From: an uncultured Poribacteria bacterium
Lineage (GTDB): Bacteria; Poribacteria; WGA-4E; WGA-3G
Assembly: GCA_951813565.1 (NCBI GenBank)
Contig: OX638351.1
Location: 224,001 to 288,000 of the forward strand
Direction of reading: 5' to 3'
DNA length: 64,000 bases
Shown here piece after piece: positions 7,651 to 62,172 of this stretch. The notes beneath the pieces were generated by a model, which searched no databases, was not told the DNA's origin, and saw only the letters and a program-made list of their open reading frames with translations. The stretch's first letter is position 1, and every line of letters begins with the position of its first letter. A program made the position numbers and the translations under genes.

Positions 7651-7814
7651 TACCATTTCTGAATGATGACTTTTCATTAACAAAAACGTGTTTGTAGTCG
7701 CGCAATTCATTGCCAAATCAACGCCAAATACGCGTATGGTATTTGTCGCCTCGGACATTCAACATACGGCAAATTCAAATCTCTATAGTGCTATTTTATT
7801 TATCAGAATTGGTA
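7651..7814. mobile_element. MITE (TA-flanked, TACCATTTCTG...CAGAATTGGTA) containing a REP and a micro-hairpin insertion
   Basis: Terminal inverted repeats; related copy at 30760-30872. Confidence 0.7.
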
Positions 7815-7819
7815 TAAAA

Positions 7820-8788
7820 ATGAAAGCAAGATCAAGCACATCACTACTCATCTCATTTGCTTTACATCTCATCGTTGGCGTAATTGGCTTCTTTTTTTGG
7901 TTTAACGTAGCGCCGAGTCGACATGCAGACAATATTGATGCGATTTTCACTACTGTGGAAGAACCGAAAACGAAGCGGATAACACCACCAAAACGCCAGC
8001 AAATTCGTAAACAAACAGAGCAGAGTACGAATCAACCGAACATGAAGATATTAACAAGCAACCAGCCTGTAACACACCGAGGTGTTGTGTCTGCTGCTGA
8101 ACCGACTGCGTTTGAACCTTTTGAAAAAGTCCATTTAGGTGAAGGTATCGCCCCTGGTCCCACTTCTATCAAACTCAAAGGTGTGCCCCGTATACAGAGA
8201 GGTGTTGAACGTCCTGTTAAGAAACAGCAGAAGGCTCCTGAACGTATTAAGAGTCGGTTGGTTAAGTTTATTGAGGCACAAGAGGGACCGCAACGAATTG
8301 TCTATTGTGTTGACCTGTCTGCCAGCATGCAGAACTTGGCAGATCGGAAACTTAAAAGGATTGTGGACACTATGCGAGATTCGCTGACGTTCCTTGAACC
8401 GCACGATAGTTTTAACATCGTTGCTTTTAGTACCGAATTAGTTGTCTATCAAGATAAGTTTGTGCCTGTGGCGGAAGATACAGTTGAAGTTTCCTCAGCG
8501 TATTTAGCAGACATTAAATCACATATTCGGACAAAAGGCACCGACCATGACATGCTTACAGTATTGACAGAGACTGCCAAATCAGCACCGACAATTGTTG
8601 TTCTTTTTAGCGATGGAATTCCGACGAGTATTACGACACCAGACCTTACGTTGGTAGGTGAACACGCAAAAGGTAACGGAAAGATTTTCGCGATGGGCAT
8701 CGGCATGGCACCAAATTTTCCCGGTGCGGTGATGCTAAAGCAGCTAAGTATTGTTAGTAAGGGAGATTTTTGGCTTGTTGATAGATAA
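7820..8788 (+). CDS. membrane-anchored VWA-domain protein
   Basis: N-terminal TM SFALH; MIDAS DLSASM; VLFSDG; the ORF-track upstream extension lies in the MITE. Confidence 0.8.
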   Translation: MKARSSTSLLISFALHLIVGVIGFFFWFNVAPSRHADNIDAIFTTVEEPKTKRITPPKRQQIRKQTEQSTNQPNMKILTSNQPVTHRGVVSAAEPTAFEPFEKVHLGEGIAPGPTSIKLKGVPRIQRGVERPVKKQQKAPERIKSRLVKFIEAQEGPQRIVYCVDLSASMQNLADRKLKRIVDTMRDSLTFLEPHDSFNIVAFSTELVVYQDKFVPVAEDTVEVSSAYLADIKSHIRTKGTDHDMLTVLTETAKSAPTIVVLFSDGIPTSITTPDLTLVGEHAKGNGKIFAMGIGMAPNFPGAVMLKQLSIVSKGDFWLVDR

Positions 8789-8828
8789 AGTGTCAAGTTA
8801 GAAATGTTCAGCCAAAAAGGAAAACTGC

Positions 8829-10652
8829 ATGCAGGAAACCCGTTTTAAGCGTGCCGAAGAAATTTCTAAAGGTTTATTTCCACATCAAGTAGAAGGTATT
8901 GCATTTCTTTTGGGTCGCCGTCGTGCCCTTCTTGCCGATGATATGGGGTTAGGCAAAACTCGCCAGTCCATCATCGCAATGGTTGAGGCGGAACCGAAAG
9001 GCCCCTATCTTGTCATCTGTCCTGCCTCTATCAAACGTAATTGGGCACGCGAAATCGAAATCGTATTTCCAGATGCTGAACCAGCCATCGTTGGTCCTGC
9101 TCCACTCCCCTCCACAGATTATAGCGGTTGGGTTATCATCAATTATGAAATCCTCGGTAAAAATCTTGACAAACTGCTTGAATTTGACTGGAAGGGTGTT
9201 GTTTTTGACGAAGCTCACTACCTGAAAAATTATCAGAGTCAGCGGAGTCGTAACGGTGCTAAACTTGTTGAATCAATTGAGAATGATCCAGTAGTTCATG
9301 CCTTAACTGGCACCCCGATGACAAGTCGTCCCCGCGATCTTTTCCCCTTGTTGCAAATTCTGAACCATCCGCTTGGAAAGAGTTTTCTCAGTTTTGCTAA
9401 ACGTTATTGTGAAGCATATCAGGGAGATTTCGGGTTAGTGGCAGATGGTGCCAGTAATCTTGAGGAGTTAACCGTACAACTACACGGTGTTATGCTGCGC
9501 CGTACAAAAGATGAGGTGTTAGACCTTCCACCTAAAGTACGAACATGGATGGACGTTGAAATGCACCCTTTTGCAATCCAGCACTACAATCGATTAGTAC
9601 AAGAATTCTTATCTAAATTTGAGACTCCAGAAGCCATTGGTGGATTACCAGAATCTCTTGGTCTATCAGCAGAATCCCGCGAAGAATTAGATGAATCAAT
9701 AGATACTACGGATTTAGGAACTGGCATGGGTAGGATAACCCAAGTGCGCCGAGCAATCGCGTTTGTTAAGTGCCGCCACACTATTAAATTTGTGGAAAAT
9801 GCTTTGGAACAGGGTGAAAAGGTAATTATCTTCACATCGTTCCTCAATACGATGCAACGTTTCCGACAGCATTTCAAGGATAGAGCGGTTTATGTATCTG
9901 GTGAAGTGCCAGCGAACCAAAGACAGGACAGAGTTGATCGGTTTCAAAACGATGATAACATCAGATTATTTGTAGCCAACATGCACATCGCAGGAGTCGG
10001 TATAAATCTGACTGCTGCACGGCAGGTTGTGTTCAACGACTTGGATTGGGTTCCTGCTAACCATTGGCAAGCGGAGGATCGCGCTTACCGCATCGGGCAA
10101 ACCGGGACTGTCAACGTTACCTATATGATTGCGAATGGCACGGTAGATTCGTTTGTTAAGACAGTGTTAGAAACAAAAGCGGCATTGATGGACGCTATCG
10201 TTGAAGGCTCAATTATGGTGCCGGGTGGAGAGGCTGCGCTTCAGTTGGATGTTCTTAGTGAACTCAAACGAATGATGAATGCGTTGTCTGTTCAACCCAA
10301 TAAAATTGAGGAATCCAATATCCATGACGTGCTTCAAAAAGCAGGTGATGTATATCTTGAAGAGAACACCTCACATTTACAAGAAGCAACCCGTAAGCAA
10401 CTCCGTCCGTATTCTGAAGAAGCCATCCGTGTTTTAGCGCAAGTGCTCTCCGGTCCACAACGAACCGTATATCATGCCGAAAGTTCATCACAAAAGGGTA
10501 AGTTTTACACGTTGGAGGTAGTCGGAGCAGATATAACATGCGATTGTCCAGGATTTACCCATCGTGGTAGCTGCCGACATGTCCGCCCACTTAAATCTGC
10601 GCTTGTTGCTGGAAAACCTTTGCCTAAAGGTTATAAGGAAGTTTCATCTTAG
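8829..10652 (+). CDS. SNF2-family helicase with C-terminal SWIM zinc finger
   Basis: LADDMGLGKT, DEAH, LTGTP, QAEDRAYRIGQ, CDCPGFTHRGSCRH. Confidence 0.9.
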   Translation: MQETRFKRAEEISKGLFPHQVEGIAFLLGRRRALLADDMGLGKTRQSIIAMVEAEPKGPYLVICPASIKRNWAREIEIVFPDAEPAIVGPAPLPSTDYSGWVIINYEILGKNLDKLLEFDWKGVVFDEAHYLKNYQSQRSRNGAKLVESIENDPVVHALTGTPMTSRPRDLFPLLQILNHPLGKSFLSFAKRYCEAYQGDFGLVADGASNLEELTVQLHGVMLRRTKDEVLDLPPKVRTWMDVEMHPFAIQHYNRLVQEFLSKFETPEAIGGLPESLGLSAESREELDESIDTTDLGTGMGRITQVRRAIAFVKCRHTIKFVENALEQGEKVIIFTSFLNTMQRFRQHFKDRAVYVSGEVPANQRQDRVDRFQNDDNIRLFVANMHIAGVGINLTAARQVVFNDLDWVPANHWQAEDRAYRIGQTGTVNVTYMIANGTVDSFVKTVLETKAALMDAIVEGSIMVPGGEAALQLDVLSELKRMMNALSVQPNKIEESNIHDVLQKAGDVYLEENTSHLQEATRKQLRPYSEEAIRVLAQVLSGPQRTVYHAESSSQKGKFYTLEVVGADITCDCPGFTHRGSCRHVRPLKSALVAGKPLPKGYKEVSS

Positions 10653-10782
10653 TGCCTCGTCAAGTGATAATTGATGGGTCTTGAAAGTAGTCGGGCATCG
10701 GAGTTCCCTCCTACCATAAGCGTTCCATCGGTAGGAACGATCTCCGAATCGTGACGGACAATAATATGTTGACAAAGCATTA
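10650..10782. mobile_element. MITE-like element (TAGTGCCTCGTCAA...TTGACAAAGCATTA) with an internal REP pair
   Basis: Imperfect terminal inverted repeats. Confidence 0.5.
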
Positions 10783-11346
10783 GATGGATTTATGAATGTT
10801 TTTCAGTCGTTACGAGTTTTTGTCTGAATCTTGGATTTACATTGATAATGTGGATTAGGTAGTGTCGCGAGCTGGAGCTCGCTCCTACAGAATGTCCGAG
10901 GCGACAAATACCATAAGCGTATTTGGCAATGAATTGCGGGCCTACGAACATGTTTGTTCTTAGGAGTCAGTCTGGTGCGGTAATGAAACCGTACCATAGG
11001 CGTCAATTTAGGGGATAATTCCCGTCAAACCTTGTAGGGCCAAATCAACACCAAATGCGCTTTTTGGTATTTGGCGGGGTCTCTGTGTCCCGCCATTGCT
11101 GATGTATTCAAACAACAAGCGGGCACCAAATCAAGAAATCAACGGTATGAACGACATTTAGTCATTCACCGGGTCCGAATGCCTTTTGGCATTCCCCGGA
11201 CCCCGCCCTACAGTGGAAAACGCCGCGTAATCATTGCAAATTGAACCTTTGTAGCCAAATATTTACACACCCCTCATGTGAACACAATTTGTAATTTTGA
11301 TGTATTTATGCTACAATAGCATTATCATAAATCAAGGAGGCTAAAA

Positions 11347-11979
11347 ATGGCAAAGATTAATACACTTGTTTTTGCAGGTGGCGCAATTCATAATTGGAAA
11401 GGCTGCAGCGAAGAAATTGTGAAATCACTCTCACAGCGAGATGAATTTGAAATTACTACAGTTGAGGACGATCTCGACGCTCTGGTATCGCCGAACTTAG
11501 ATCCGTACGATCTCATCGTTTTCTATTATACGGTCGGTGAAATTTCGGATGCCCAGAAAAATGGGTTGCTAAACTATGTCGCTTCAGGAAAAGGTTATGT
11601 CGGCATACATTCAGCTGCCGATTCTTTCCGCGGATGCCCAGAATATCGTTCAATGGTCGGTGGATACTTTACAACACATCCACGTTATCGTGACTATCAG
11701 GTCAGTATTGTGGATAATGAACACGAAATCACGCAGGGTCTTGACGAATTCGTCGTGACAGATGAACAGTATATTCTCGATTATGACCCGCGTAATCATG
11801 TGCTTGCTTCAGCATTGTGGAAAGGCGAAGCGATGCCTGTTGCTTGGACTAAGAATTGGGGTGAAGGTAAAGTTTTCTATCTTGCACTCGGACACGACCC
11901 AGCAGCATGTCAGCATGAGAAGTTCAGTACTCTTCTTCAGCGTGGTGCGCTTTGGGCAGGTGCTAACGGTGGAGAATAA
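11347..11979 (+). CDS. ThuA-like domain protein (class I glutamine amidotransferase-like fold)
   Basis: GKGYVGIHSA, GGYF..HP, DEQY, WTKNWGEGKVFYLALGH; AAGGAGG RBS. Confidence 0.85.
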   Translation: MAKINTLVFAGGAIHNWKGCSEEIVKSLSQRDEFEITTVEDDLDALVSPNLDPYDLIVFYYTVGEISDAQKNGLLNYVASGKGYVGIHSAADSFRGCPEYRSMVGGYFTTHPRYRDYQVSIVDNEHEITQGLDEFVVTDEQYILDYDPRNHVLASALWKGEAMPVAWTKNWGEGKVFYLALGHDPAACQHEKFSTLLQRGALWAGANGGE

Positions 11980-12349
11980 ATATTGTTATCTCCACAAGTC
12001 TCAGTCTATCTAATTAAAAACCTGTTAGCAAAATAGATGTATAGGCGGTTCATATCCGTCTATACATTATGCAAATACCAGCGAAAACTCAGCAGTGCTT
12101 CCTAATATGAACGTGAGTTTGATAATATAATTCAATAATCACTGTAGGTTGGGTAGAACGGGATATACAATAAAATCCGACATAAAAGCGTGATTTATTT
12201 TCCATTTAATGCCGAAATTCCAGAGAAGTGAGTGAAACCCAACTCTTAATTACTTCCAAGACGGTTGCCTTGTTGGGTTTCGCTTCGCTCTACCCAACGG
12301 ACATCTACACATAATATCACAAATACCCAGCAGTGCTTCCAAATACAAG

Positions 12350-12973
12350 ATGAAGCAGAAAATCACCGATATTCAGTCACATAGTCAATTTCCTTCACAC
12401 TACCAACTCTTTTTAGACAACAAACCTTTTGTCATAATACCCACTAATCTTGTTGAAAAATTAGGTCTGCGGATCGGTTTAGAAATTGAATCGCAGACTA
12501 TTGAAAAGCTTATCGCAGCAGACGAAGCGATGCGTGCTAAAAATTATGCACTCGGTTTACTACGTGAGAACATTTACAGCAAAACCCAAATGACGCAGCA
12601 GCTTGAACGAGAAGGGTTTAGAGAACAAACAATAAATATAATCATCACGGAATTGATTAATTCAGGGCATATTCGAGACCGGCTATTCGCTGAGAAATGG
12701 ATACAACGGCGGCAGAAGTCAAATCCCCGCGGACGAACGGTGCTAAAACAGGAACTCATTGACAAAGGGGTTGACCCACAGACAGCGGAACAGGTTTTAA
12801 CTGAAGTTAAGACTGAGGACGAGGCAAGGTCAGCACTGCAAATTGCCCAAAAACGTGTGAAACATTATAAACGTTTGCCAATTCATGTGGCAAAACGGAG
12901 ATTACACGGTTTTCTGGCACGCCGTGGGTTTGAATCAGAAATTATCTTACAAGTGATTGAAAATGTTTTATAA
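12350..12973 (+). CDS. recX: regulatory protein RecX
   Basis: DRLFAEKWI, RG..LKQEL..KGV, FLARRGF; upstream of alaS. Confidence 0.85.
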   Translation: MKQKITDIQSHSQFPSHYQLFLDNKPFVIIPTNLVEKLGLRIGLEIESQTIEKLIAADEAMRAKNYALGLLRENIYSKTQMTQQLEREGFREQTINIIITELINSGHIRDRLFAEKWIQRRQKSNPRGRTVLKQELIDKGVDPQTAEQVLTEVKTEDEARSALQIAQKRVKHYKRLPIHVAKRRLHGFLARRGFESEIILQVIENVL

Positions 12974-13005
12974 TTCGCAATTGAACAATATGCAATTATT
13001 TTGCC

Positions 13006-13035
13006 TTGACTTCTTGCGTAAAAATAAACTATAAT
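13006..13035 (+). promoter_or_regulatory. sigma70-like promoter of alaS
   Basis: TTGACT-18 bp-TATAAT. Confidence 0.55.
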
Positions 13036-13062
13036 TGGGTTTATACGGGAGCGGGTTAAAAT

Positions 13063-15723
13063 ATGACATCAGATGAAATCAGAGCAAGTTTTTTAGAATA
13101 TTTCCAAAAAAAAGGACACACAGTTGTCCCGAGTGCTTCGTTAATTCCTGTTGATGATCCAACGTTGTTGTTTACAAATGCGGGTATGAATCAATTCAAG
13201 GATGTCTTCCTTGGAATTGGACAACGGGAATATACAAGAGCGGTAGACACACAGAAATGTCTGCGAGTCAGTGGGAAACACAACGACCTGGAAGAGGTAG
13301 GACATTCACCGAGTCACCACACGTTCTTTGAGATGCTCGGAAATTGGTCATTCGGAGATTACTATAAACAGGAAGCTATTGCATTCGCATGGGAATTAGC
13401 AACGGAGTTGTGGAAAATTCCGGCAGAGCTGCTCTGGGCAACGGTGTACATTGAAGACGATGATGCAGAAAAACTTTGGCTTCAAGAGACTAACCTGCCG
13501 CTTGACCGTATTCGCCGTTGTGATAAAGACAACTTTTGGGAAATGGGTGAGACCGGTCCCTGTGGTCCGTGTAGTGAACTTTTTATTGATTTAGGGGTTG
13601 AAGCATTTCCTGAAACTGCAAACGACCCCGACGCTGGTCCTAACACAAGTGATAGATTCTTAGAATTTTGGAATCTGGTTTTTATTCAATACAATCGGGA
13701 CCAGGATGGGACACTTGAACCTCTTCCTGCTACTCACGTAGATACGGGCATGGGGTTTGAGAGAATCGCCTCAATACTACAAGGAGTTGATTCAAACTAC
13801 AAGACAGACTTGTTTACGCCGCTTCTGGATACGATTTCGGATATGACTGAGACTGCCTACTCACACGACATCAGTGGGCTACCACACCGCGTAATCGCTG
13901 ACCATATCCGATGTTTAACGTTCGCCATTGGAGATGGCGTAATGCCGTCTAACGATGGACGGGGATATGTCATCCGTCGAATTCTGCGGCGTGCTGTGTT
14001 ATATGGCAAAAAATTGGAGATGGACGAACCGTTCATTTATCGCCTTGTTGATAAAGTCGTTGCGTTGCTTGGTGATGTTTTTCCAGATGTTTTGCCACGA
14101 CAGGAGTTTATCACACGCACTATTCAGGCTGAGGAGAATCGTTTTCATCAAACACTTGCACGCGGGTTAGAGATGCTTGGACAGTCAATTGACACACTCA
14201 AAGCGGAAGGTGAAACCCAACTTGATGGCAAACGTGCATTTGAGTTATATGATACATTCGGATTTCCACTTGATCTAACACAACTTTTGACGCGCGAAGA
14301 AGGTTTCACTGTTGATGAAGTCGGTTTTGAAGGCAGCATGGCGGAACAACGCGCACGCGGGCGCGCTGCATGGCAAGCAACAGGTAGTGGTGCGAAAGAC
14401 GATGAAATCGCTGTTTACGCAGAAGTGCTTAAAGAGACTGGTAGCACAGGATTCGTTGGGTATACTGAACACACCGTTGATGCAGAAATTGTAGCACTGA
14501 TTGCAGGAACAGAATCTGTTGCAAGAGCAAAGCAAGATGATGAGGTATCAGTCTTACTCAATCGTACACCATTTTACGGCGAATCAGGGGGACAGATTGG
14601 CGATGTGGGGACACTTGAAAGCGATGGAGCGAAACTTGCTGTGCTTGACACGATAAAACCTTCTCCTGATCTGTTCGTGCATAAGTGCAAAGTCATTGAA
14701 GGTGAGATTACGCCTTTTACCAAAGTTAAGGCACAAATTGACAGCGCACGTCGTAGTTCTATAGCAGTGAGCCACACCGCAACCCATCTGCTTCATAGTG
14801 GATTGCGAAACATTCTCGGAACGCATGTTGCACAAGCAGGATCACTCGTTCAAGCAGGAAGATTACGATTTGATTTTAACCATTATGAAGCCGTTTCATC
14901 GGCGCAACTGCGTGAAATTGAAACATACATCAACGAGAAGATTCGTCAAAATGACACGCTTGACATTAGCGAAATGCCGTTGGATCAAGCAAAAGAAAAG
15001 GGTGCTTTAGCCTTCTTCGGTGATAAATATGGTGATATTGTGCGTGTAGTGAAAGCAGGTGAATATAGCGTAGAATTATGTGGCGGCACACACGTTGAAG
15101 CAACGGGAGAATTAGGTTACGTCAAATTGATGAGTGAAAGTAGTATCGCCGCAGGTGTGCGTCGTGTTGAAGCGCTCACTGGCAGTGCTGCTGTTACAAC
15201 TATTCAGGATGACGAGGAACTGCTTGCAGATGTTGCCAATTTGCTGAAAACGCCAAAAACCGGTTTGTCTGAAAGAATTGAACAACTGCTTCAGGAACAA
15301 CGAGAATTGGAACAGCAAATTCAAAAACTGAAAAGCCAGAACGCACTCTCGAACATTGATACATTAGTTGATGGTGCTACGCTTGTTGAAGGTGTGAAGG
15401 TTGTCGCTTCACGGATAGACAAAACTGAGAGAGATAGTTTGCGGCAGATGGTGGACGCGCTTAAAAATCAACTGAAATCTGGTGTTGTTGCCCTCGCTTC
15501 AGTTACAGGAAATGACGCAGCCTTTATTGTTGGTGTAACATCTGATCTTGTAACAGATAGCGGTTTGCATGCTGGCAAACTCATACAAGCGATAACCGAA
15601 ATTGCTGATGGGCGCGGCGGTGGTCGTCCGGAATTGGCACAAGGCGGCGGTCGAAACCTTGGTAAAGTAGACGCAGCGATTGCTGCGACTACTCAAATTA
15701 TTGAAAACCAACTACAACAGTAA
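13063..15723 (+). CDS. alaS: alanine--tRNA ligase
   Basis: DPTLLFTNAGMNQFK, HHTFFEMLGNWSFGDY, DTGMGFER, HTATHLLH, ELCGGTH. Confidence 0.98.
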   Translation: MTSDEIRASFLEYFQKKGHTVVPSASLIPVDDPTLLFTNAGMNQFKDVFLGIGQREYTRAVDTQKCLRVSGKHNDLEEVGHSPSHHTFFEMLGNWSFGDYYKQEAIAFAWELATELWKIPAELLWATVYIEDDDAEKLWLQETNLPLDRIRRCDKDNFWEMGETGPCGPCSELFIDLGVEAFPETANDPDAGPNTSDRFLEFWNLVFIQYNRDQDGTLEPLPATHVDTGMGFERIASILQGVDSNYKTDLFTPLLDTISDMTETAYSHDISGLPHRVIADHIRCLTFAIGDGVMPSNDGRGYVIRRILRRAVLYGKKLEMDEPFIYRLVDKVVALLGDVFPDVLPRQEFITRTIQAEENRFHQTLARGLEMLGQSIDTLKAEGETQLDGKRAFELYDTFGFPLDLTQLLTREEGFTVDEVGFEGSMAEQRARGRAAWQATGSGAKDDEIAVYAEVLKETGSTGFVGYTEHTVDAEIVALIAGTESVARAKQDDEVSVLLNRTPFYGESGGQIGDVGTLESDGAKLAVLDTIKPSPDLFVHKCKVIEGEITPFTKVKAQIDSARRSSIAVSHTATHLLHSGLRNILGTHVAQAGSLVQAGRLRFDFNHYEAVSSAQLREIETYINEKIRQNDTLDISEMPLDQAKEKGALAFFGDKYGDIVRVVKAGEYSVELCGGTHVEATGELGYVKLMSESSIAAGVRRVEALTGSAAVTTIQDDEELLADVANLLKTPKTGLSERIEQLLQEQRELEQQIQKLKSQNALSNIDTLVDGATLVEGVKVVASRIDKTERDSLRQMVDALKNQLKSGVVALASVTGNDAAFIVGVTSDLVTDSGLHAGKLIQAITEIADGRGGGRPELAQGGGRNLGKVDAAIAATTQIIENQLQQ

Positions 15724-15798
15724 TATGAACTTGCGTTTGAAATTGGTTCATCTTTGTAACCATTTTGCGAACGCGTAAGAATAGGGAAGATAAAACAC

Positions 15799-16431: not shown

Positions 16432-16647
16432 TAAATTTGGGGCACTTTTGGAAATTAACTGTTTCATTAGAATGTTGCTCAACATGCATGTCGGTAAAAA
16501 ATTGAAAAAAGATTGACGAATATCCACTTAATTGAAAAGAAATATCTGAAATAAACGTATATACTAAAGGAATGAACAATTTCATCCTAACGTGGTAAGT
16601 CAACATTATATTAACGACTTACACTTATATATAGAAAGGATAAACTC

Positions 16648-17058: not shown

Positions 17059-17142
17059 TATGCACATTTCTGAAGTTGTAGATACCACTTTTACTTGTCT
17101 GTAGCGGAATTTCTAACACACTATTACATTCATTTCAACGGT

Positions 17143-17889: not shown

Positions 17890-18022
17890 TCCAATGCTTT
17901 CTTCCTGTGAATCAACGCTGAATGCGCTTATGGCATTCAGCGGGAGCGAGCTCCAGCCCGCGACTTTTATTTATTAACGCACTGTACATGATGTTTCACA
18001 TCAATTAGTGAATGGGAACACA

Positions 18023-18496
18023 ATGAAACAAATCCCAAACAGAGGACATCGTCAATTACGAAAAGGCAGATACTCATTACCCGGGGCTTACTATTTCCTG
18101 ACTTTATCCATTATTAACAAAGAACCTATTCTTGCAAATGCCGAGATTGCGGATACTATTTTTGAATCTTTTGAATGGTTAGAATCTAATGAGCGTCTCA
18201 GATGTTTTTGTGTTATTGTGATGCCTAACCATATCCATGCTGTCATCCAATTAAGAAGCGAACAAACCTTATCCAGACTCATGCAATCGTTCAAAAGTTT
18301 CACAGCGAAGCAGATTAACACACAATTAGGACGAAGCGGATCTGTCTGGCAAGAGACTTATTATGAACATGGAATAAGACGAAATGGATCGTTGAATGAA
18401 ACCATTCGATATTGTTATGAAAATCCTGTGAGGAAGGGATTAGTAAAGGAAGCACAGGAGTATCCGTATTGGAGATGTAAGTTCAGGATGGAATGA
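18023..18496 (+). CDS. rayT: REP-associated tyrosine transposase (RAYT)
   Basis: LRKGRYS.PG..YFLT, MPNHIH (HUH), FKSFTA, WQ..YYEH.IR, Y..ENPV.KGL; flanked by inverted REPs. Confidence 0.92.
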   Translation: MKQIPNRGHRQLRKGRYSLPGAYYFLTLSIINKEPILANAEIADTIFESFEWLESNERLRCFCVIVMPNHIHAVIQLRSEQTLSRLMQSFKSFTAKQINTQLGRSGSVWQETYYEHGIRRNGSLNETIRYCYENPVRKGLVKEAQEYPYWRCKFRME

Positions 18497-18501
18497 TGGG
18501 A

Positions 18502-18830
18502 GTCGCGAGCTGGAGCTCGCTCCTACAGGAAGACGGAAAGAGGTCGCGAGCTGGAGGTTGTTCTTACAAGAAAAAGACGGAAGAGGTCGCGAGCTGGAGG
18601 TTGTTCCTACAAGAAAAAGACGGAAGAGGTCGCGAGCTGGAGGTTGTTCCTACAAGAAAAAGACGGAAAGAGGTCGCGAGCTGGAGGTTGTTCTTACAAG
18701 AAAAAGACGGAAGAGTCGCGAGCTGGAGCTCGCTCCTACAGGAAGACGGAAAGAGGTCGCGAGCTGGAGGTTGTTCCTACAAGAAAAAGACGGAAGAGGT
18801 CGCGAGCTGGAGCTCGCTCCTACAGGAAGA
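18502..18830 (-). repeat. tandem array of 8 REP units (41-44 bp)
   Basis: Units start at 18502, 18543, 18586, 18629, 18673, 18715, 18756, 18799; minus strand GTAGGAGCGAGCTCCAGCTCGCGAC (type A) or GTA(G/A)GAACAACCTCCAGCTCGCGAC (type B). Confidence 0.95.
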
Positions 18831-18845
18831 GCATATAAACAAAAC

Positions 18846-18874
18846 TTGACCAAAAACTGAATATTTGATATAAT
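18846..18874 (+). promoter_or_regulatory. sigma70-like promoter of the ABC genes
   Basis: TTGACC-17 bp-TATAAT with extended TG. Confidence 0.6.
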
Positions 18875-18906
18875 ACACCTATAAGCAAAAACTCAGGAGA
18901 TAAGAA

Positions 18907-21663: not shown

Positions 21664-21841
21664 CATAAGCGTCAACTTAAGAAAAAAATGTTGGGTTTTC
21701 TCTTGTGGGAGGGCTTTCTAAGCCCGATTTTGTGAGACCCAAGCCGTTAAATCGGGGTTGAAAACCCGACAAATGCCAAAAAGCGCATTTGGCGTTGATT
21801 CACTCCCACAAGAAAGATTGGACGCTAAATTGACACCTATG
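21664..21841. mobile_element. IS4-derived MITE inserted in a REP with a 20-bp direct repeat
   Basis: CATAAGCGTCAACTTAAG...AATTGACACCTATG; GGTAGAGCGAACGCGAAACC on both sides. Confidence 0.82.
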
Positions 21842-24236: not shown

Positions 24237-24648
24237 GAAAATCTCCTTTATGAAAGTTTACGGTAAAGTTCCTAAAACTACATTAGGAATCCTCACGCGT
24301 TGTGTTACTAAATATTAGGTGAGAGTATCCCACCTTCTTCAAATAAAATAGCCCACACATTCTCCATGTTAGATGGAGAGCGTACGGGCGCGATGAAATA
24401 TTGAGGGTTACTACCGATTTTTACTTGTTCGTTAACCTGTATATTATTACAAGTGTTAATGTGTTGAGGGGGGGGGGGTACTAACTTAAAGTTAATAGGG
24501 CGCATAGTAGACGAGGACATAGAAAGGATAGAGACAAACCAACTGTAGAGTTGACTTATTCTAATTGAGGTCGGTTTTTCAACATTGGGGTTGATATTAG
24601 TATTTTGCATTTTTGTAATGTTTGAGAATCTGTCTTATAGTAAATTAT

Positions 24649-24894
24649 ACGACTTGTGCCAGTTAAGTGAAAGTTTTGTTGTTTTTCACAATTGTTCATG
24701 TTTTGGAATCAACGCCAAATACGCTTTTGGCATTTGGCCGGAGCGATCTCCGAATCGCGACACGTTTGCAGTCGGGAATCGGAGTTCCCTCCTACCTTGA
24801 GGACAGCAGCTATCGGAAAAGTTGCGAAACGCAAACCCAAACAAGGGGAACATGTGAAATATAAATATACCAAATGTTAACTGGCACAACGCGT
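24649..24894. mobile_element. MITE (ACGACTTGTGCCAGTTAA ends) with a 7-bp TSD
   Basis: Terminal inverted repeats; AAATTAT on both flanks; related copy at 36073-36398. Confidence 0.75.
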
Positions 24895-25219
24895 AAATTA
24901 TGTAAATAAATTCACATATATTCTGTAGGAGCGATCTCCGAATCGCGACGAAACCACTAATAGTCGGGAATCGGAGTTCCTTCGGACAGCTCAGATGTCC
25001 AGTTAATTGTAGAATCCGCTATAATACCGATCAGACATCAATTACCCTTCTGGTTGCCTATAGTGAATAAAACCTTATTTAAAATTTCTCATCACGCTAA
25101 TTTCGTGAACTTGTTGCGATTATACAAAACTTTAAAAAAAATGTCAAGAAAATATTTGCCATCTTAAAAAAATTGGAAATTTTGCAAAAAAAAAAAGAGG
25201 ACATTCAGCAGAGGTGGAT

Positions 25220-30759: not shown

Positions 30760-30872
30760 TACCATTTCTGAAAAATAACTTCTCATTAACAAAAACGTGT
30801 TCGTAGTCGCGCAATTCATTGCGCCTCTTACATATTTCTTTTCAAAAGAGAAAATAATTCATAGAATTGGTA
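30760..30872. mobile_element. MITE (same family as 7651-7814) with an uninterrupted REP
   Basis: TACCATTTCTG...AGAATTGGTA. Confidence 0.7.
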
Positions 30873-32912: not shown

Positions 32913-33056
32913 TAACTGTCAACTTAAGCAAAAAATTGATGGATTTCTCTTGTGGGAGGGAGACCTTGTCCGCCCGATATTACGAGATCCAATCAGTTAA
33001 ATCGGGGTTGAAAACCCCTCCTACAAGAGAGAATATACGCTCAATTGACACCTATG
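32913..33056. mobile_element. IS4-derived MITE with an internal REP pair
   Basis: TGTCAACTTAAG...AATTGACACCTATG. Confidence 0.65.
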
Positions 33057-36072: not shown

Positions 36073-36398
36073 ACGACTTGTGCCAGTTAACATTTTGTTT
36101 TGTTGGTTTTCACATATATTTGCATTTGTGCTATAAACATATCGTCCCTACCAAATCAACGCCAAATGCGCTAAATCAACGGTATGAATGCCTTTTGGCA
36201 TTCCCCGTATGGCATTTGTCGGGACTAAAGAGTGCTCGTCCAATCATTTTCTATAAACATATCGTCCCTACCAAATCAACGTCAAATGCGCTTATGGCAT
36301 TTGTCGGGACTGAAGAACATATAAATATATGATAATGGCTTACAAACATTTTCTTTTGTGAAATAAAGTTCTACAAACGGTTATTTAGCACAACTCGT
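36073..36398. mobile_element. MITE containing two REP-like palindromes, each with a micro-hairpin insertion
   Basis: ACGACTTGTGCCAGTT...TTAGCACAACTCGT. Confidence 0.65.
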
Positions 36399-43341: not shown

Positions 43342-43577
43342 CATAGCCGTCAATTTAAGGATAGATTTTCTTGTAGGAGTGAATCAACGCAGCATGCGCG
43401 TGTGGCATGCTGCGGGTTTGTAACCCCGATTTAATTAGTTTAGGTTCACAAAATCGGGGGTTACAAACCCGACAAATCATGTAGAATGCCATGCGCGCAT
43501 TCTACCAAGCGCATTTGGCGTTGATTCACTCCCACAAGAGACAATCCGGTAATTATGTGCTTAAGTTGACGCCTATG
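43342..43577. mobile_element. IS4-derived MITE with a REP pair carrying micro-hairpins
   Basis: CATAGCCGTCAATTTAAG...CTTAAGTTGACGCCTATG. Confidence 0.8.
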
Positions 43578-50283: not shown

Positions 50284-50305
50284 CATCTAAGGGATAACTC
50301 AGGAA

Positions 50306-51474: not shown

Positions 51475-51523
51475 TAACACTTTATCGGACTCAAAACTGA
51501 CAGAAGATAGGTATTATACAAAA

Positions 51524-52483: not shown

Positions 52484-52524
52484 GAATGTAATTCGAGGGA
52501 GTCCGTATAGGGTTCAGCAATGAG

Positions 52525-53493: not shown

Positions 53494-53642
53494 TCTTGCA
53501 AAGAACGTCCGTAATTGAAATTTCGGTAGACACTCCACTAGAAATCTGCTGAAATTACCACTGTTTTAGTTATAATTATTTAATAAATGCTGCAAATTAT
53601 GTAGGTCCTAACTGTTCTATTGAAAATTGGAGGATATGTCAA

Positions 53643-54302: not shown

Positions 54303-54337
54303 CTCAAAGTTTCTGGTTGGTTGTGTTAGGATGAAAG

Positions 54338-56382: not shown

Positions 56383-56461
56383 TGATGCTCTTCACAATAA
56401 GATTGAGGCACGAAGCCTTGTTTTTATCTTCAGGACTTATTATTCCCTTGGAGAAAACATT

Positions 56462-57649
56462 TTGCCTAAAATAAAAATTATTCTGTTATTATTTGTAGTC
56501 CTATTTGCCATGTCAGGATGCGAAAAAATTACGGATAAAGTAATATTACCGCCCGATACGACACCGGCAGATACGCAACCTCTCACAGTGATGACCTATA
56601 ATGTATACGTTGGCAGCAGTGCAGATCCGCTCTTATCCGTAGAGAATCTTGGACAAGTGCCGGGAGAAGTTACCAAGATGTACAACAATGTCATGGCATC
56701 CGACTTTCCAAGTCGTGCAGTTGCAATCGCTAAATCCATAAAAACGCATCAACCACACCTAATCGGACTACAAGAAATTTCTTTAATCCGCCACCAAAGT
56801 CCAGGTGACTTTATTCCGAACAATCCGACTCTTGCTGAAGAGGTCGTCTTGGATTTTCTCCAAATTTTGATGGATGCGCTTCAAGCAGAAGGCTTAAGTT
56901 ATCAAGTCGCTGCGCAAGTTGAAAATTTAGATGTTGAAATGCCAATGTTTACTGCTACCAGTATTGATGATGTTAGGTTGACCGATTATGATGTGATAAT
57001 GGCTCGTAGTGACGTTGAAATATCAAATCCAATGACGGCTAACTACGAAAATGCGCTTAAAATAGAAATGCTTGGGCTGCAAATAAAAAGAGGCTATGTT
57101 GCTGTAGATGCTACTGTGTCTGGTGTAACTTACCGTGTTGTCAATACACATCTTGAGGCATTTGCAGAAGAAAACAGGGTGGAACAAACACAGGAACTTG
57201 TGGATATTCTTAGCAGCGAGACCATGCCGATTATTTTGCTCGGAGATTTCAATACGAGAGCAACCGATGGAGCTGGCTACCAAATTTTATTGTCGGCGGG
57301 TTACGCTGACGTTTGGCTCCTTGATAATTGGTCTTATGCTTGTTGTTTAGATGGTAGTCCTGGATGCATAGCTTGCCAGATGGGAAATCGTAAGGCTAAT
57401 GATATTATACGCAAACTTCATGCAATGAGAGCTGGAAACGAGTCTGGCAATACGTGCTGTCAAGACGATGACATATTAAATGAGGTGAGCGATCTCACGG
57501 TCCGGATTGACCAAATCTTTGTGCGAAATATGGATCTATTCCTGCCTGTCGTGTCATTCACGGTCGGAGATAAACCATCTGACCGACTCCCTTCAGGCTT
57601 ATGGCCATCTGACCATGCGGGTGTTGTTGCACAGTTTACATTTGAGTAA
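56462..57649 (+). CDS. endonuclease/exonuclease/phosphatase-family lipoprotein
   Basis: MTYN, GLQE, NTHLE, GDFN, RIDQIF, SDH; lipobox MSGC. Confidence 0.88.
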   Translation: MPKIKIILLLFVVLFAMSGCEKITDKVILPPDTTPADTQPLTVMTYNVYVGSSADPLLSVENLGQVPGEVTKMYNNVMASDFPSRAVAIAKSIKTHQPHLIGLQEISLIRHQSPGDFIPNNPTLAEEVVLDFLQILMDALQAEGLSYQVAAQVENLDVEMPMFTATSIDDVRLTDYDVIMARSDVEISNPMTANYENALKIEMLGLQIKRGYVAVDATVSGVTYRVVNTHLEAFAEENRVEQTQELVDILSSETMPIILLGDFNTRATDGAGYQILLSAGYADVWLLDNWSYACCLDGSPGCIACQMGNRKANDIIRKLHAMRAGNESGNTCCQDDDILNEVSDLTVRIDQIFVRNMDLFLPVVSFTVGDKPSDRLPSGLWPSDHAGVVAQFTFE

Positions 57650-57670
57650 CGTAAAACTTTGGTAAAAGTA

Positions 57671-57712
57671 AAGCGCGCTGCAATGGAATTGAAAATCCAT
57701 CGCAGCGCGTTT
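57671..57712. terminator. hairpin between convergent genes (likely bidirectional terminator)
   Basis: CGCGCTGCAATGGA...TCCATCGCAGCGCG. Confidence 0.55.
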
Positions 57713-57731
57713 CTATTTGTAGGATAGATCT

Positions 57732-58907
57732 CTAATCAAAGACTTCAAGTTTACCATTTTTTACAATTAAGACAACTGGGTCGTAAATCGCGTCTCCGTT
57801 AGAATCAAAAGAAAACTTACCTAAAATGGTGTCAAAATCCTTAATCTCAGCAAGCGCAGCAGCAATTGCCTCTGAACCTGTTGATTGCGCGTTTCTGATC
57901 GCCTCTGCAAGGATATAGACAGCGGCGTATGGTTTTGCAGCCCAAACGCTCGGTTCAAAACCGTATTTCTCGGTGTATTTCTGAACGAAGGCTTGATTCC
58001 TGGGCGTATCTGCGGTGCTAATCCATGCTGAAAATGTAATTGTCCCCTCGGCGGCAGCTCCGGCACTTTGGATCAGATCTCTGGACAAGATAAGGGAAAT
58101 AAAGGGAATTTCAGTGGGGATCCCAAGCTCGCGTGCCTGTGTGAGAATATGAATCAACTCTATGTCTTGTGCGGAGACAAAGATCGCATCTGGATTCAAC
58201 GTCTTTATCCGGGTTAATTGGTTGGAAAAGTCGGTATCACCGGTCACGAATGTCTCCGTCGTCAGCACCTTAACCCCATTATCAGTGAGTGTTTGCCTAT
58301 ATACTTCGTCGCTCACCTGAGAAGCGAAGTCAACCGTGTCTGCTATCGTAGCTATTCTTTGGTAACCGAGTCTCTCCTGCGTTACCTTGACTCCCTCAAG
58401 AATCAGTACTTCTGTAGAGAGACTGGTTCGGAAGATAAAATCACCGATAGCAGTCAAGCCAGAAGCGAGGACGACCGGACTAAAAGCCACAACCTGGTTT
58501 TCTTGCGCAATAGGAAAAACGGATTTGGCAATGTGTGAGGTCCAGACACCGAGAATGACAGGGACCCTATCTTGATGGATTAGTTTATTAAAAGCTGTAA
58601 CTGCACCTTCTTTAGTGCTCATATCGTCTTCAATAATGAACTTGAGAGTTGCATCCCCGAGCAATTGAGATGTATTGATCTCCTCAAGTGCCATGTTAAA
58701 ACTATTTTCCATCACCAAGGCACCCGGACCGAATTCACCTGGTCCTAAGTGACCTGTCTGAGGTAAAACGACACCAATGGTAATTTCCCCACTGAGACCT
58801 TCAGGCTGAGCGGTAGGTTGCACAACTTGTTCAATTCGTTCACAGCCAATAATGCCACCAACCAACATTATAATTACGAATACATACGCAAAAGTTGTTA
58901 TCTTCAT
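57732..58907 (-). CDS. branched-chain amino-acid-type ABC substrate-binding lipoprotein
   Basis: IGVVLPQTG, EEIN, EDD, TDFS.QLT, GKFSFD.NGD; AGGAGG RBS. Confidence 0.9.
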   Translation of the reverse strand: MKITTFAYVFVIIMLVGGIIGCERIEQVVQPTAQPEGLSGEITIGVVLPQTGHLGPGEFGPGALVMENSFNMALEEINTSQLLGDATLKFIIEDDMSTKEGAVTAFNKLIHQDRVPVILGVWTSHIAKSVFPIAQENQVVAFSPVVLASGLTAIGDFIFRTSLSTEVLILEGVKVTQERLGYQRIATIADTVDFASQVSDEVYRQTLTDNGVKVLTTETFVTGDTDFSNQLTRIKTLNPDAIFVSAQDIELIHILTQARELGIPTEIPFISLILSRDLIQSAGAAAEGTITFSAWISTADTPRNQAFVQKYTEKYGFEPSVWAAKPYAAVYILAEAIRNAQSTGSEAIAAALAEIKDFDTILGKFSFDSNGDAIYDPVVLIVKNGKLEVFD

Positions 58908-58937
58908 CTTAACCTCCTAATTTGCCAAAATATAAAC

Positions 58938-58973
58938 AAGTCCGAGTTCTCAATGATGTGAGAACTCAGACTT
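58938..58973. terminator. hairpin downstream of the SBP pseudogene
   Basis: AAGTCCGAGTTCTCA...TGAGAACTCAGACTT. Confidence 0.45.
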
Positions 58974-59005
58974 ATTTGTATAAGTATTGTCTTTCAGTAT
59001 TATGT

Positions 59006-60155
59006 CTACTCAGGTGCCGCCTCAATTATGTCATCCTGCGGCATACCGTTAAGAATTTGGCGCACGCCGACGCTTTTGATGGGATTTCGGTTTTCATCAA
59101 AACGAAAGATGGTTGTCGCACCTTCGTAGTTTGTGATATTTGCGATGGCATCTCGAATCGCAGCCGGATCATCGGTTGAACCTACTGTCTCAATTGCTAT
59201 TGCCAAAATTTTCATGGCATCATAACCTGCTGCTGCAATGCCATCAACGGAGCCATATTTTGCCGTATAAGCAGAAATAAAACCCACAGCATCCGGATCT
59301 AAGTTGGTACAATAGTAACCATCAACAGGTTCATTATCCTCCAAAGTCGAAGACATTAGCGGATCGTCCCAACCATCGCTACCGATAAAGATAGATTCAA
59401 TTCCCATGTCCAGTGCTTGTGCCATTATCCGTGGTACTGATTTAGGAAAACTGGCGAGAAGAAGCACATCAGGATTTGCCTCTTTAACTGCAGTAAGTTG
59501 GGAATCAAACATCGTTCCGCCGTTCCCTTCATAGGTTTGTTCAACAACTACACTCCCACCAAGTTCTGTAAAACTTGCCTTAAATGATTGCACAAAACCC
59601 TCAGAATATACATCCATATTTTGCCAAATCATAGAGGCAGATATTGCATTGAGTTGCTCTACGGCAACTTTTGCCAAAAGATTTGCCTGCAGGACATTGG
59701 AACCAGCAACGAGAAACATGAAATCGTTTGGGTCTGTTGCATCTGCCGTAACTTCTGCCCTTGTTGCTCACAAAAGCACAGGAACAGTGGCAACCGGACC
59801 AACTTTTACGGCATGGCTTGAAAAGAGGGGGCCTAATATAGCAACAACATTTTCCATTTCAACCAATTCTGTCGCTGACTGAGTAACGGTATCTGTCGTT
59901 TTTTCCTTAAAAATCAACTCAATCTGCATGACAAGGACGCCACCAGCTGCATTGATTTCAGCTTGGGCAAGTTTTGCCCCGTTACCAAAACTGGTGTAAT
60001 TTGGCTGCGGATGAATCAATCCCACTTTAAGTGTAGACACCATTTCGTCATCCGTAGGCGGAACCATATCCATCATTTTTTCACAACCCAGATAGCCAAG
60101 CGACTGAGAATGCAAGTAGGACGCATAGCACAACCCTAAAAATTTTTGTGTTCAT
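59006..60155 (-). pseudogene. ABC substrate-binding protein pseudogene
   Basis: Frameshift near the lipobox and in-frame TGA at 59768-59770. Confidence 0.8.
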
Positions 60156-60339
60156 AAATTGCTCCTATTTTGTAGACTACCTTCACAGTGCAAGGTAGTT
60201 GAGATTTCTTATTTTTTATTTTATAATGTAATTATAACATTAATGTGTGTAAAAAGTTACATTTCTATGAACAAGTTGGCTCAGAGTGAGACTTTGCGTC
60301 CGGCAACGCGAACGCAAAAGTCTCTACAGATAATTTTAC

Positions 60340-60776
60340 CTATTCACTGGCACCGTTACGCAGCAAGTGTGCTCCCAAAGCACCATTCAACAACGGAAGT
60401 AGGGCATCAAAAAAATCCATACAGTTGATCGGGTTTCGTCTCCGACAGCAGTAAAGGTTGTGGCATTGAGAATACCAAACCAATTCCAAAAAAATAAAAT
60501 AGCAGCAAACATGAACCCGTAGAATAACGTGTTAGCCGCTATGAACTCTTGAACGCTTGAATTATCCGCGACTTTGTTCAAGCGAATGTAACTAAATATT
60601 AAACCCAACACTATTGAAATCGCGGAGAGTACGTTAATATAACCCTAAACAGAACTATACGGATTGTCACTGTTGGGATCAGAAGTGTGGTATAATGGTT
60701 CAATAACAGTGTGGATTGCAACTATTGTCGCAATTATGATGAGAACAACGCCTATAACTTTCTTGAGGGCATCCAT
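60340..60776 (-). pseudogene. small membrane protein pseudogene
   Basis: MDALKKVIGV.. with in-frame TAG and a poly-T frameshift near the 3' end; AGGAG RBS. Confidence 0.65.
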
Positions 60777-60951
60777 GATATTTCTCCTGCCCTGATCGGG
60801 TTTATAGAATATATCCCATAAACTAATTTTGTTGGTATCACTGTGTTCAACTAACCTAAAAAATTATAGGTTAATTATTCGGAGATCGCTGACAGGACGC
60901 TTCTAAAGAGCATCACAGTAAAATTGCCACACATTATCGGATTTGTTGATT

Positions 60952-61109
60952 ATAACCCAAGTTGCTACCTATATCGCGAATGCTCTTGTAGGAGGGGTTT
61001 CTAACCCCGATTTAGAAAAGAAAGCATAAGAATTAGCTGGAAATCCTTGTTTTTCAGTAAAAAGCAATGTCTGCAAGCTTGAAATCTTGTCCGTAGCAAC
61101 TTAGGTGAT
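60952..61109. mobile_element. MITE-like element with an internal REP
   Basis: ATAACCCAAGTTGCTAC...GTAGCAACTTAGGTGAT. Confidence 0.6.
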
Positions 61110-61208
61110 TATAGTGAAAAAGCAATTCAATGTCAAGCACAAACAATCGCATTCAGAGTTATTTAGTTTTCTATATTTCTGACGCATTTTATTACACGTG
61201 TTAATCCT

Positions 61209-61490
61209 TTATAACAGTATTGTAACGCGAGTGATAATTAATTTGATGAAAAACACAAGTATCGTCATCACCTCACTTATATGAAGTCTACAAGGACGAT
61301 TGCGCTTGTTAGAGGTATCACTATCCTTGAAGATTGAGAAACCATTGTTTTTGATAATAAGAAAAAAGTCGTGAATTTCACAGAAAAGTTGTATAATACA
61401 CATGGAGTCCTTCTTTGACAGAAAGGATTTAATTTCGTTATACATAGGAGTTTTCTTTTATCAAACCATTTTCTTACACTAAACTCACGT
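61209..61490 (-). pseudogene. IS982 remnant (one end plus the 5' part of the transposase)
   Basis: LFCEIHDFF...RLHISEVMTIL; AAACTCACGT end. Confidence 0.8.
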
Positions 61491-62172
61491 TATTGTGGTA
61501 TTGTAGGTTGGGTAGAGCGGAGCGAAACCCATAAATCAACGCTATGAATGCCCTTATGGCATTCAGCCAAATCAAGGCCAAATTCGCTTTTGGCCCTACA
61601 AGGTTTGACGGGATTTATCCCTTAAATTGACGCCTAATGAGTTTTGACGTTCAAATCGGGCAAACTTTCCTAATGAAGTAAGTTCGACATTAATATTAAA
61701 TATTAAAGGAAACGGAATGATGTTTCACGTCTATTACATTCAATAACAAATGTGTTCTTGCACGCCAGCGGCGTGCTATGAGGGATTGATCACATACCGC
61801 ACCCGCTAAATGCCTTGCGCGCATTTGGCGTTGATTCACGGAGCGGGGGTGCGGTGTGTGATGGTTGCTATAAACATATTGCTCCTACGGAGCAAAGTAT
61901 TTGTTTTGGTTTCTGGATTAGATAGACGTAAGCGAAACATAACATCTAAATTTTATTTCTTTTATCGAACTCACGTTAAATGAAATTACCTCTTTTGATT
62001 GTCAAAGTTCATTAGGGTAGAGTTTACGAAACCCAACGGACAATATAAACTTCGAGTAACACTCATTACTGAAAATCTTTAAAACTAAAATACCCTGAGT
62101 ATATTCAATAATATTGATTTTTTAGTCAATCTGTGATATAAAATCAGAAAAGTCTTTTGAAGAGGAATACCT

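Follow-up and report, generated by a model that had tools for sequence, protein, structure and literature searches.

A 33-35-nt AATCAAC-headed hairpin as a probable mobile unit placed 5′ of G-runs in one family of Candidatus Poribacteria

Intergenic DNA of an uncultured Poribacteria bacterium carries many copies of a hairpin of about 34 nt headed by the word AATCAAC, and the locus analyzed here raises the question of whether so short a piece of DNA moves as a unit of its own, where it lands and what might move it. The stretch under study (the window; 64,000 bp) corresponds to bases 224001-288000 of the single-contig genome G000 (5,426,982 bp, 43.1% G+C, 95% complete). A sequence-only reading of the window had listed 14 places with this hairpin and had described it as a parasite of repetitive extragenic palindromes (REPs) that inserts without target-site duplication (TSD) and is moved in trans by an HUH enzyme resembling the REP-associated tyrosine transposases (RAYTs). 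The element was delimited here as a unit of 33-35 nt composed of a near-fixed leader, (YR)AATCAAC, and a 9-bp hairpin; its sequence was as described at all 14 places (Table 1), and we are highly confident that it is a discrete mobile unit.

AATCAAC occurred 34 times in the window, against 16.45 ± 4.10 times in 100 shuffled sequences, none of which reached 34. A covariance model (R1) was built from 8 copies of the window and 20 copies from the rest of the genome, and the window was searched with R1 with the filters off. In the alignment of these 28 copies the leader was invariant in every copy (8 window and 20 other), 95.1% of the cells of the 9-bp helix were paired (26-39% in slid controls), and five of the nine pairs changed on both sides, with a covariation score that was reached by none of 500 shuffles; the compensatory changes in the stems that had been claimed earlier were thus confirmed. 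R1 recovered 13 of the 14 places at E ≤ 0.014, with eight canonical units at 46.7-56 bits and weaker matches at the remaining places (Table 1), while the nest at 11127-11197 gave E = 0.75 only and the outer copy at 36152 gave E = 0.17. The hairpins of the units were calculated to be moderately stable as single-stranded DNA (-4.1 to -10.7 kcal/mol), and a scan of the window against Rfam gave no match. Two details of the earlier description were revised. The copy at 10903, which had been called leaderless, reads as a unit minus the 11 bases CAAATCAACGC between two CAAAT repeats, and the two bases in front of AATCAAC, which had been taken as free, are mostly YR (CA 212, TG 86, CG 36, TA 8 and GG 27 of 377 copies). 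These 377 copies formed the canonical set used for the excision, dinucleotide and open reading frame (ORF) counts.

Genome-wide, canonical units with two or fewer non-Watson-Crick pairs numbered at least 460, the leader followed by a perfect stem gave 492 matches, and a hairpin of at least 6 bp followed 790 of the 2358 occurrences of AATCAAC; the most frequent 9-mer of the whole genome was AAATCAACG, with 817 copies. Hairpins of other families carry the leader too: those of the GGTATGAATGCC.. family (186 copies) mostly follow it in doubled form, CAAATCAAG-AAATCAAC, and those of the GGTCCGAATGCC..GGCATTCCCC family number 58 copies; at least three unrelated hairpin families are headed by the identical leader. 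There is no truncation series, because 363 of 490 oriented family hairpins had the full leader and only 19 had a partial or mutated one; about 108 were leaderless inside larger composites (for example, GTAGAATAC/GTATTCTAC). The leader was present on both sides in only 14 sequences, about 10 of them family hairpins. Coding DNA is avoided, since 91 of the 377 units were inside crude ORFs in a genome with 85% coding sequence, and orientation relative to the transcription of neighboring genes showed no preference (114:128). Stem mismatches that were wobble pairs only on the bottom strand (A.C/C.A on the top strand) were found in 90 copies (40 distinct), against 32 copies (22 distinct) with top-strand wobbles, a weak hint that the folding strand is the one reading hairpin-GTTGATT-YR; on this bottom strand the unit comes after CCC.

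When the unit was excised exactly and the 11 + 11 flanking bases were joined, the resulting 22-mer was present elsewhere in the genome for 184 of the 377 copies, the baseline being 1278 repeated 22-mers among 5000 random intergenic ones. Excisions of other lengths restored a known 22-mer in at most 22 copies, and same-length excisions in a shifted register did so in 21-157 copies, as expected in arrays and where the ends of unit and flank match. Restoration in number was therefore obtained only by removing exactly one unit length, which bears out the absence of a TSD. Among solitary copies (no other leader motif within 45 nt), an exact empty counterpart was found for 58 of 168. The host form tcttgtgggag|gggttttcaac (26 empty copies) was occupied by at least four unit variants, and single haplotypes of 32-33 nt were found in up to 19 flank contexts; since one host form holds several variants and one haplotype many contexts, the insertions were independent and not mere amplification of filled hosts. 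Empty forms are known for several unrelated hosts. The three empty-site comparisons proposed earlier within the window were reproduced, with CATTGCGCCTC at 30817 (plus two minus-strand copies), AAAACCCCTCC at 33011 and GTAGGAGGGGTTT at 60988, and the empty host form of the 7714 site has 36 copies in the genome. Passengers are nevertheless common: a GCAGCATGC unit followed by a GCCAAATGC..GTC unit, as a dimer, occurred more than 20 times in apparent REP doublets with conserved outer flanks, and for the subfamily with a GG leader (23 copies) the flanks were always identical and no empty form was found.

The landing site was characterized in 131 distinct non-array contexts. Directly 3′ of the unit, 122 of them had G, 100 had GG and 97 had GGG; the base directly 5′ was C in 71 contexts and G in 43. 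In 50 of the 131, a stem of 4 bp or more started no more than 2 nt from the junction; the corresponding count for random GGG sites was 228 of 2000. On the most common host, CTTGTGGGAG-GGGGTTTTCAACCCC (the GGGGTTGAAAACCCC hairpin), units occupy both feet, each directed toward the hairpin. The description of the unit as a parasite of REPs accordingly stood in so far as most copies lie within or next to a REP-like palindrome or another copy, but the target is better put as N|GGG. Units also nest in the loops of one another, the nests being at C|G, and arrays are accounted for if each new unit lands between the last C of the previous unit and the identical GGG. At genome positions 57879-58085, an array of six units has alternating lengths of 35 and 34 nt and a period of 69 nt, and arrays therefore also grow via duplicated two-unit blocks. 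The host REP CTTGTGGGAG-GGGGTTTTCAACCCC often forms an inverted pair with a second REP (CTTGTGGGAGGGCTTTATAAGCCCGAT...ATCGGGGTTGAAAACCCCTCCCACAAG; for example, at genome positions 527474-527545 and 2029741-2029810), and such inverted pairs are doublets like the REP doublets forming hairpins (REPINs), carrying units as passengers.

The other junction follows a different rule. The two bases before AATCAAC track the last base of the flank even in identical haplotypes, so they are not inherited with the unit. Of 225 copies after C, 209 began with CA (46 of 58 host types); of 134 copies after G, 77 began with TG, 30 with CG, 24 with GG and none with CA; of 12 copies after A, 5 began with TA, 3 with CG and 2 with TG. 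The rule was replicated in loci of G104, G106, G110 and G087 (18/21 after C, 10/10 after G) and in 104 contexts from other Poribacteria records, in which CA followed C in 42 of 45 and G in none of 48 contexts and GGG lay 3′ of the unit in 77. A core of 32 nt (leader and hairpin) is thus constant, 0-2 bases at the 5′ side and 0-1 G at the 3′ side vary by context, and the 3′ junction is ambiguous by ±1 G. In the host ACCCATA|GGTG (5-11 empty copies) the insert is 33 nt and TA is host sequence; inserts of 33 nt were also found in GT(G/A)|GGAGCG hosts.

The genomes of the closest species are 85-88% identical to G000, with differences in entire repeat clusters, and a comparison of orthologous empty and filled places was clean at one site only. 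At this site, the REP upstream of a RAYT gene in the window (a host of the 33-nt type), G087 and G089 retain CTGTAGGAGCGAGC, and G000 and G104 have CTG[TGAATCAAC..CAGC]GGGAGCGAGC; the filled and empty orthologous states that had been called for were thereby found. Elsewhere, the 640-bp repeat-filled spacer at window positions 10650-11290 of G000 measures 71, 75 and 183 bp in G104, G098 and G087, respectively, and in G106 it has a 1.3-kb insert carrying a gene; intergenic repeat clusters turn over as blocks. Population reads of 8 runs from 4 studies cover the window, and the four runs examined all gave short-read contigs ending at repeats, in which no gain or loss of a single unit was visible. 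Their sole bridged difference was a contig of one run (X1) that joins window position 24635 to 25022 and skips the 386-bp repeat cluster at 24636-25021, and it therefore derives from a near-identical strain without this cluster, including the unit at 24705. A skip of 35 nt at 21744-21780 in read contigs has sides shorter than 30 nt and probably reflects further copies of the REP.

In the cross-genome survey, a strict unit pattern and a reversed-pattern control were applied to 176 genomes of the phylum. The strict pattern was found in 84 of them, all of one family (f1; 83 of 111 genomes besides G000), with 38 of 39 genomes in genus g1 and 43 of 65 in genus g6, and in none of the 64 genomes of the other ten families; the control gave 0 everywhere. 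Copy number ranged from 0 to 295 and was highest in the closest relatives of G000. When 185,579 species genomes were scanned, 79 of the 80 titles among the matches listed were Candidatus Poribacteria and the remaining one was 'uncultured bacterium'. The range of the unit is thus one family of Candidatus Poribacteria only. Across species, the abundance of the unit is decoupled from that of its host REP: 362 empty H1 REPs and 24 units were counted in G091, 209 and 16 in G102, 41 and 295 in G104, and 1 and 118 in G110. With ORFs avoided, transcription orientation unbiased and abundance decoupled from the host REP, the unit is a parasite at the DNA level.

Table 1. Copies of the unit, the RAYT gene and its REPs in the window (positions within the window; bits and E-values of the units from R1)
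Feature	Position	Strand	Score and remarks
Canonical unit, CA leader, GCCAAATAC stem, inside host palindrome GCGCAATTCATTGC|GC	7714..7747	+	54 bits
Unit without CAAATCAACGC, host type as at 7714	10903..10925	-	29.3 bits over 10903-10936
Canonical unit in host GTAGGGC|GGGGTCTCTGTGTCCCGCC	11041..11075	+	48.3 bits
Nested composite: double leader CAAATCAAG+AAATCAAC, then GGTATGAA/GAATGCC-family hairpins	11127..11197	+	E = 0.75
Canonical unit, TG leader, inside REP flanking the RAYT gene upstream	17908..17941	+	55.6 bits
RAYT gene, 162 aa, candidate mobilizer	18008..18496	+	NF047646, 132.5 bits (cut-off 80)
About 7 GTAG-type REPs (GTAGGAGCGAGCTCCAGCTCGCGAC and variants), 3′ of RAYT	18500..18832	-	read from sequence
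Canonical unit at one foot of host REP CTTGTGGGAG|GGGTTTTCAACCCC	21768..21802	-	53.9 bits; 26 empty host copies
Canonical unit, GG leader, 5′ of REP CGGAGCGATCTCCGAATCGCGAC	24705..24738	+	51.5 bits
Outer unit, loop holding a second-family unit (TAAATCAACGGTATGAATGCC..CCCC) at GC|GTATG	36152..36220	+	inner unit 36172-36204, 20.0 bits
Canonical unit in host hairpin GTCCCTAC|GGGAC	36272..36305	+	56 bits
Canonical unit, GCAGCATGC stem, in host GTAGGAG|GGGTTTGTAACCCC	43380..43413	+	53.8 bits; empty form at 60988
Unit with leaderless inner hairpin GTAGAATGC/GCATTCTAC in loop	43471..43528	-	27.7 bits over 43488-43528
Variant unit, TA leader, GCTATGAATGCC stem, after ACCCA	61532..61567	+	33.1 bits
Degenerate or truncated unit adjoining the 61532 unit	61568..61594	+	18.8 bits, E = 0.014
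Canonical unit in host GCTCCG|GGGTGCGGTATG	61805..61838	-	46.7 bits

On these observations, the unit would be a non-autonomous piece of mobile DNA that is copied whole and inserted, with no target duplication, directly on the 5′ side of a G-run (N|GGG), as a rule at the foot of a second hairpin, which may be a REP or a copy of the unit. Repeated hits at one foot would give tandem arrays and hits on C|G in loops would give nests, and the sequence of the stem would be free provided that it pairs. A trans-acting enzyme may recognize leader and hairpin in single-stranded DNA, nick and transfer strands, with the first two bases of each copy being set by the flank during integration. Recognition by a dedicated factor is argued for by the conservation of the leader before unrelated hairpins, the maintenance of the stems only as structure and the exact ends of the unit. 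We infer single-strand recognition, the class of the enzyme and the direction of copying, and a trans-acting, hairpin-recognizing strand-transfer enzyme is put forward tentatively, as a reading that may well prove wrong. The Y1 HUH transposases (RAYT/IS200-type) are, to our knowledge, the only known class that works in this way, but that the mover is specifically a Y1 HUH enzyme appears doubtful.

The Y1_Tnp profile matched 10 genes in the genome, in three classes: five IS200/IS605 TnpA, two class-B and three RAYT-type genes. The region 18008-18832 of the window is a REPtron, composed of the RAYT gene, one GTAG-type REP upstream and about 7 downstream (Table 1). The unit at 17908-17941 lies about 70 bp upstream of this gene, inside its own upstream GTAG-type REP, and a second RAYT-type gene has a unit about 100 bp upstream; the class-B genes are flanked by their own REPs of the GCCCCAGCGGGGC type. 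A 118-aa ORF at 18493-18849 that crosses the REP array is probably spurious. At the orthologous place, the RAYT gene is missing in G104, and only its first 25 or so codons are left in G087 and G089. The window also contains a full IS200/IS605 element at 4254-6009 (genome 228254-230009), with TnpA (139 aa, 4389-4808) and TnpB (370 aa, 4805-5917), which belongs to a resident family of about 28 mostly TnpB-only copies whose left end begins with TTAGCACTCCCCGTCAAACCCC and whose right end is ..GGTAGTGGGTACCTATGAC.

Several results weigh against a mover of this kind. Contrary to the prediction that a RAYT, Y1 or IS110 gene would be flanked by AATCAAC hairpins, none of the three RAYT-type and two class-B genes (0/5) has units on both sides, their own REPs flanking them instead, and IS110 (PF01548) had no match in the genome, although the control profile search matched in 6 of 14 genomes. 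Units stand on both sides of 11 ORFs, none of which was transposase-like when judged by eye, with no Pfam scan. Across the 176 genomes, RAYT-C was found in 132, including 9 of 11 and 28 of 29 genomes of the unit-free families f2 and f3, and it was missing or only distant in the unit-rich G088, G110 and G096. The class-B Y1 gene was found in 102 of 176 genomes and was absent from G106, G107, G087 and G089. IS605 TnpA was found in 16 of 40 genomes of the genus and was absent from G104, G107 and G087, whereas G101 had 20 TnpA matches but 3 units. The single-contig genome G093, with 22 units, had none of the three Y1 classes. No Y1 class, therefore, tracks the unit across genomes, and the case for an HUH/RAYT mover is weakened by the occurrence of RAYT-C in unit-free families and the lack of each Y1 class in several unit-bearing genomes. 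No orientation switch along the chromosome (two-domain pattern) was seen either, in a genome whose GC skew does not suffice to locate origin and terminus. The flank-dependent dinucleotide and the 33-nt inserts in two host types are, moreover, unlike clean cut-and-paste. According to PMC3479197, the cut site of a REP-associated transposase is chosen by a guide that precedes the hairpin, any 3′-OH may be joined, base 4 of the guide pairs with the base 5′ of the cut, and base 3 with the base 3′ of the cut. Under this rule, a CAAC guide would predict G|T, which fits the G|TG junctions (77 copies) but not C|CA (209 copies). A simple Y1 HUH model is weakened by the junction rule and the lack of a co-varying Y1 gene, and the same two results leave copy-choice, an RNA route and an unknown enzyme as live alternatives.

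Other sources of the unit were also considered, with multi-copy families and the ORFs between units being judged by eye and not by a profile scan. The unit as a miniature of the resident IS605 family was rejected, the ends TTAGCACTCCCCGTCAAACCCC.. and ..GGTAGTGGGTACCTATGAC being unrelated to it. Three 1.78-kb elements with a Resolvase domain (genome 1648978-1650759, 2156511-2158292 and 3269993-3271772), which we take to be IS607-like, show no evident target duplication in the flanks seen, and their ends are unrelated to the unit. An autonomous parent among the multi-copy families was likewise rejected, these being by eye ordinary IS types apart from the IS605 and IS607-like elements with unrelated ends. 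The genome has one tyrosine recombinase gene (a single Phage_integrase match), and the Y2_Tnp profile had no match in the genome, its control being also without a match anywhere.

Copy-choice would need no dedicated enzyme: a nascent strand stalled at a hairpin foot, its CCC end re-annealed to GGG beside a unit resident elsewhere, would copy that unit and return via microhomology of 1-4 nt. The link between dinucleotide and flank would then be inherited from the donor, C|CA donors (array junctions) giving C|CA and G|TG donors giving G|TG, and the near-universal 3′ GGG, the ±1 G ambiguity at the 3′ junction and the 33-nt inserts in ACCCATA|GGTG and GT(G/A)|GGAGCG hosts would be accounted for; arrays also grow by block duplication (57879-58085). 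We nevertheless consider it unlikely, since it offers no reason for a near-invariant 7-nt leader before unrelated hairpins or for copies that always end at one leader base without a truncation series, and it would take hundreds of ectopic switches on as little as 1-3 nt of homology, which would be unusual; in the comparison of 5′ microhomology, the control sites were themselves full of units. Copying through RNA would also yield one fixed and one variable junction: the GGG/CCC end of a short unit transcript would anneal to a 3′ end at the target, which would prime its reverse transcription, and the variable first bases would come from the run-off end. A YR step would be in keeping with the -1/+1 preference at bacterial transcription starts, and the genome has two reverse transcriptase genes, one for a Drt4-type defense enzyme (genome 811749-813281, 479.5 bits, cut-off 450) and one for a 465-aa group-II-like enzyme (genome 3990667-3992061) whose neighbor is a CRISPR array of 37-nt repeats. 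However, neither gene is associated with units, and with no 5′-truncation series, no orientation bias with respect to transcription, and top-strand G.T rarer than A.C, which is at odds with a selected hairpin in a top-sense RNA, this route is judged improbable.

That the unit is not mobile itself, but a variable part of REP/REPIN families amplified as a passenger, would suit the REP doublets with their two-unit blocks and the GG-leader subfamily without an empty form. This passenger-only reading is largely refuted by the empty forms of several unrelated hosts, the occurrence of one haplotype in up to 19 contexts, the nesting of units in the loops of each other and the opposite proportions of empty REPs and units in G091 and G110, and we give it hardly any weight. 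None of the explanations tested accounts fully for the variability of the junctions. Beside the strand-transfer enzyme, it is conceivable, though rather unlikely, that a mechanism of bacterial mobile DNA not yet described is at work, in which pairing with the G-run at a hairpin foot fixes one junction and the other is finished in a flank-dependent manner (CA after C, TG or CG after G). If true, this would suggest a 'templated patch' system based on a polymerase or on ligation, in place of a classical transposase, and it may extend to the small dispersed repeats (SDRs) of cyanobacteria.

The present analysis adds figures for the N|GGG rule, a leading dinucleotide that is set by context and was replicated in further species, the absence of a series of truncated leaders, the hint of the folding strand and the negative result for the profiles of three Y1 classes. 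The family is informative in that its near-identical copies number in the hundreds and are present in complete genomes, its sites can be resolved to the base in both empty and filled state and its N|GGG target is simple, and the flank-set dinucleotide gives any proposed enzyme a sharp prediction. REP clusters in these sponge symbionts are layered, with one repeat parasitizing another, inflating and reshaping intergenic DNA, and such layered repeats break short-read assemblies exactly at unit sites.

Among known systems, the REP/REPIN-RAYT system resembles the unit in its short, conserved tag of single-stranded DNA before an imperfect palindrome (20-40 nt), its intergenic location, its hundreds of copies and its arrays, and the unit-bearing genome encodes RAYTs. 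As described in PMC3733652, some REP families lie inserted in small palindromes. The tag of the unit is, however, (YR)AATCAAC and not GTAG/CGTC, the GTAG tags belonging to the host REPs; no RAYT gene is flanked by units, and unit and RAYT are not co-inherited across the 176 genomes; units form direct tandem arrays and not inverted doublets (14 double-leader sequences), and their insertion sites are readable to the base. IS200/IS605 elements, of which the miniature derivatives are termed palindrome-associated transposable elements (PATEs), are alike in the absence of a TSD, in the logic of a hairpin with a short single-stranded guide and in insertion beside a short fixed word. They differ in that the unit has one hairpin and not two, its bottom-strand 3′ end varies with the flank, the resident ends share nothing with it, and TnpA is absent from unit-rich genomes. 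Integron attC sites share a hairpin read by structure, a free stem sequence and a conserved ..AAC/GTT.. box, AATCAAC being one position off the inverse core consensus RYYYAAC; the unit has a single box, no complementary R′ box in most copies (only 14 double-leader forms) and no cassette, its junctions do not fit a G|TT crossover, and the genome has the one tyrosine recombinase gene only. The leader as a site of the integration host factor (IHF), whose core is WATCAA, was dropped, the TTR half being absent in the main subfamilies. Membership of IS110/IS1111, elements that target REPs and leave no TSD, is contradicted by the lack of a DEDD transposase gene (PF01548), and the unit departs from miniature inverted-repeat transposable elements (MITEs) in having no TSD and one leader in place of terminal inverted repeats.

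Literature searches on cyanobacterial SDRs and Poribacteria REPs gave nothing on an AATCAAC-hairpin element. The claim that no such family had been described was half correct: none with this leader came to light, but REPs and SDRs are the same sort of thing. SDR1-8 of Nostocaceae (Elhai et al. 2008) are reportedly 21-27 nt long, share a hairpin with compensatory changes and are restricted to one clade; they are said to lie inside other repeats and nested in their own copies, with the mover unknown and RNA-mediated copying proposed. At about 34 nt, the unit lies at the lower end of the sizes known for mobile DNA, and the movement of SDRs has been an open question since their description. Compared by description alone, the unit is like these SDRs in its length below 40 nt, its hairpin with compensatory changes, its nested self-insertion and its restriction to a clade, and it is unlike them in its phylum, its length of 33-35 nt, its fixed 7-nt leader, its N|GGG target and its flank-set first dinucleotide. 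By this analogy, the unit would match in kind the REPs and, most closely, the SDRs of cyanobacteria.

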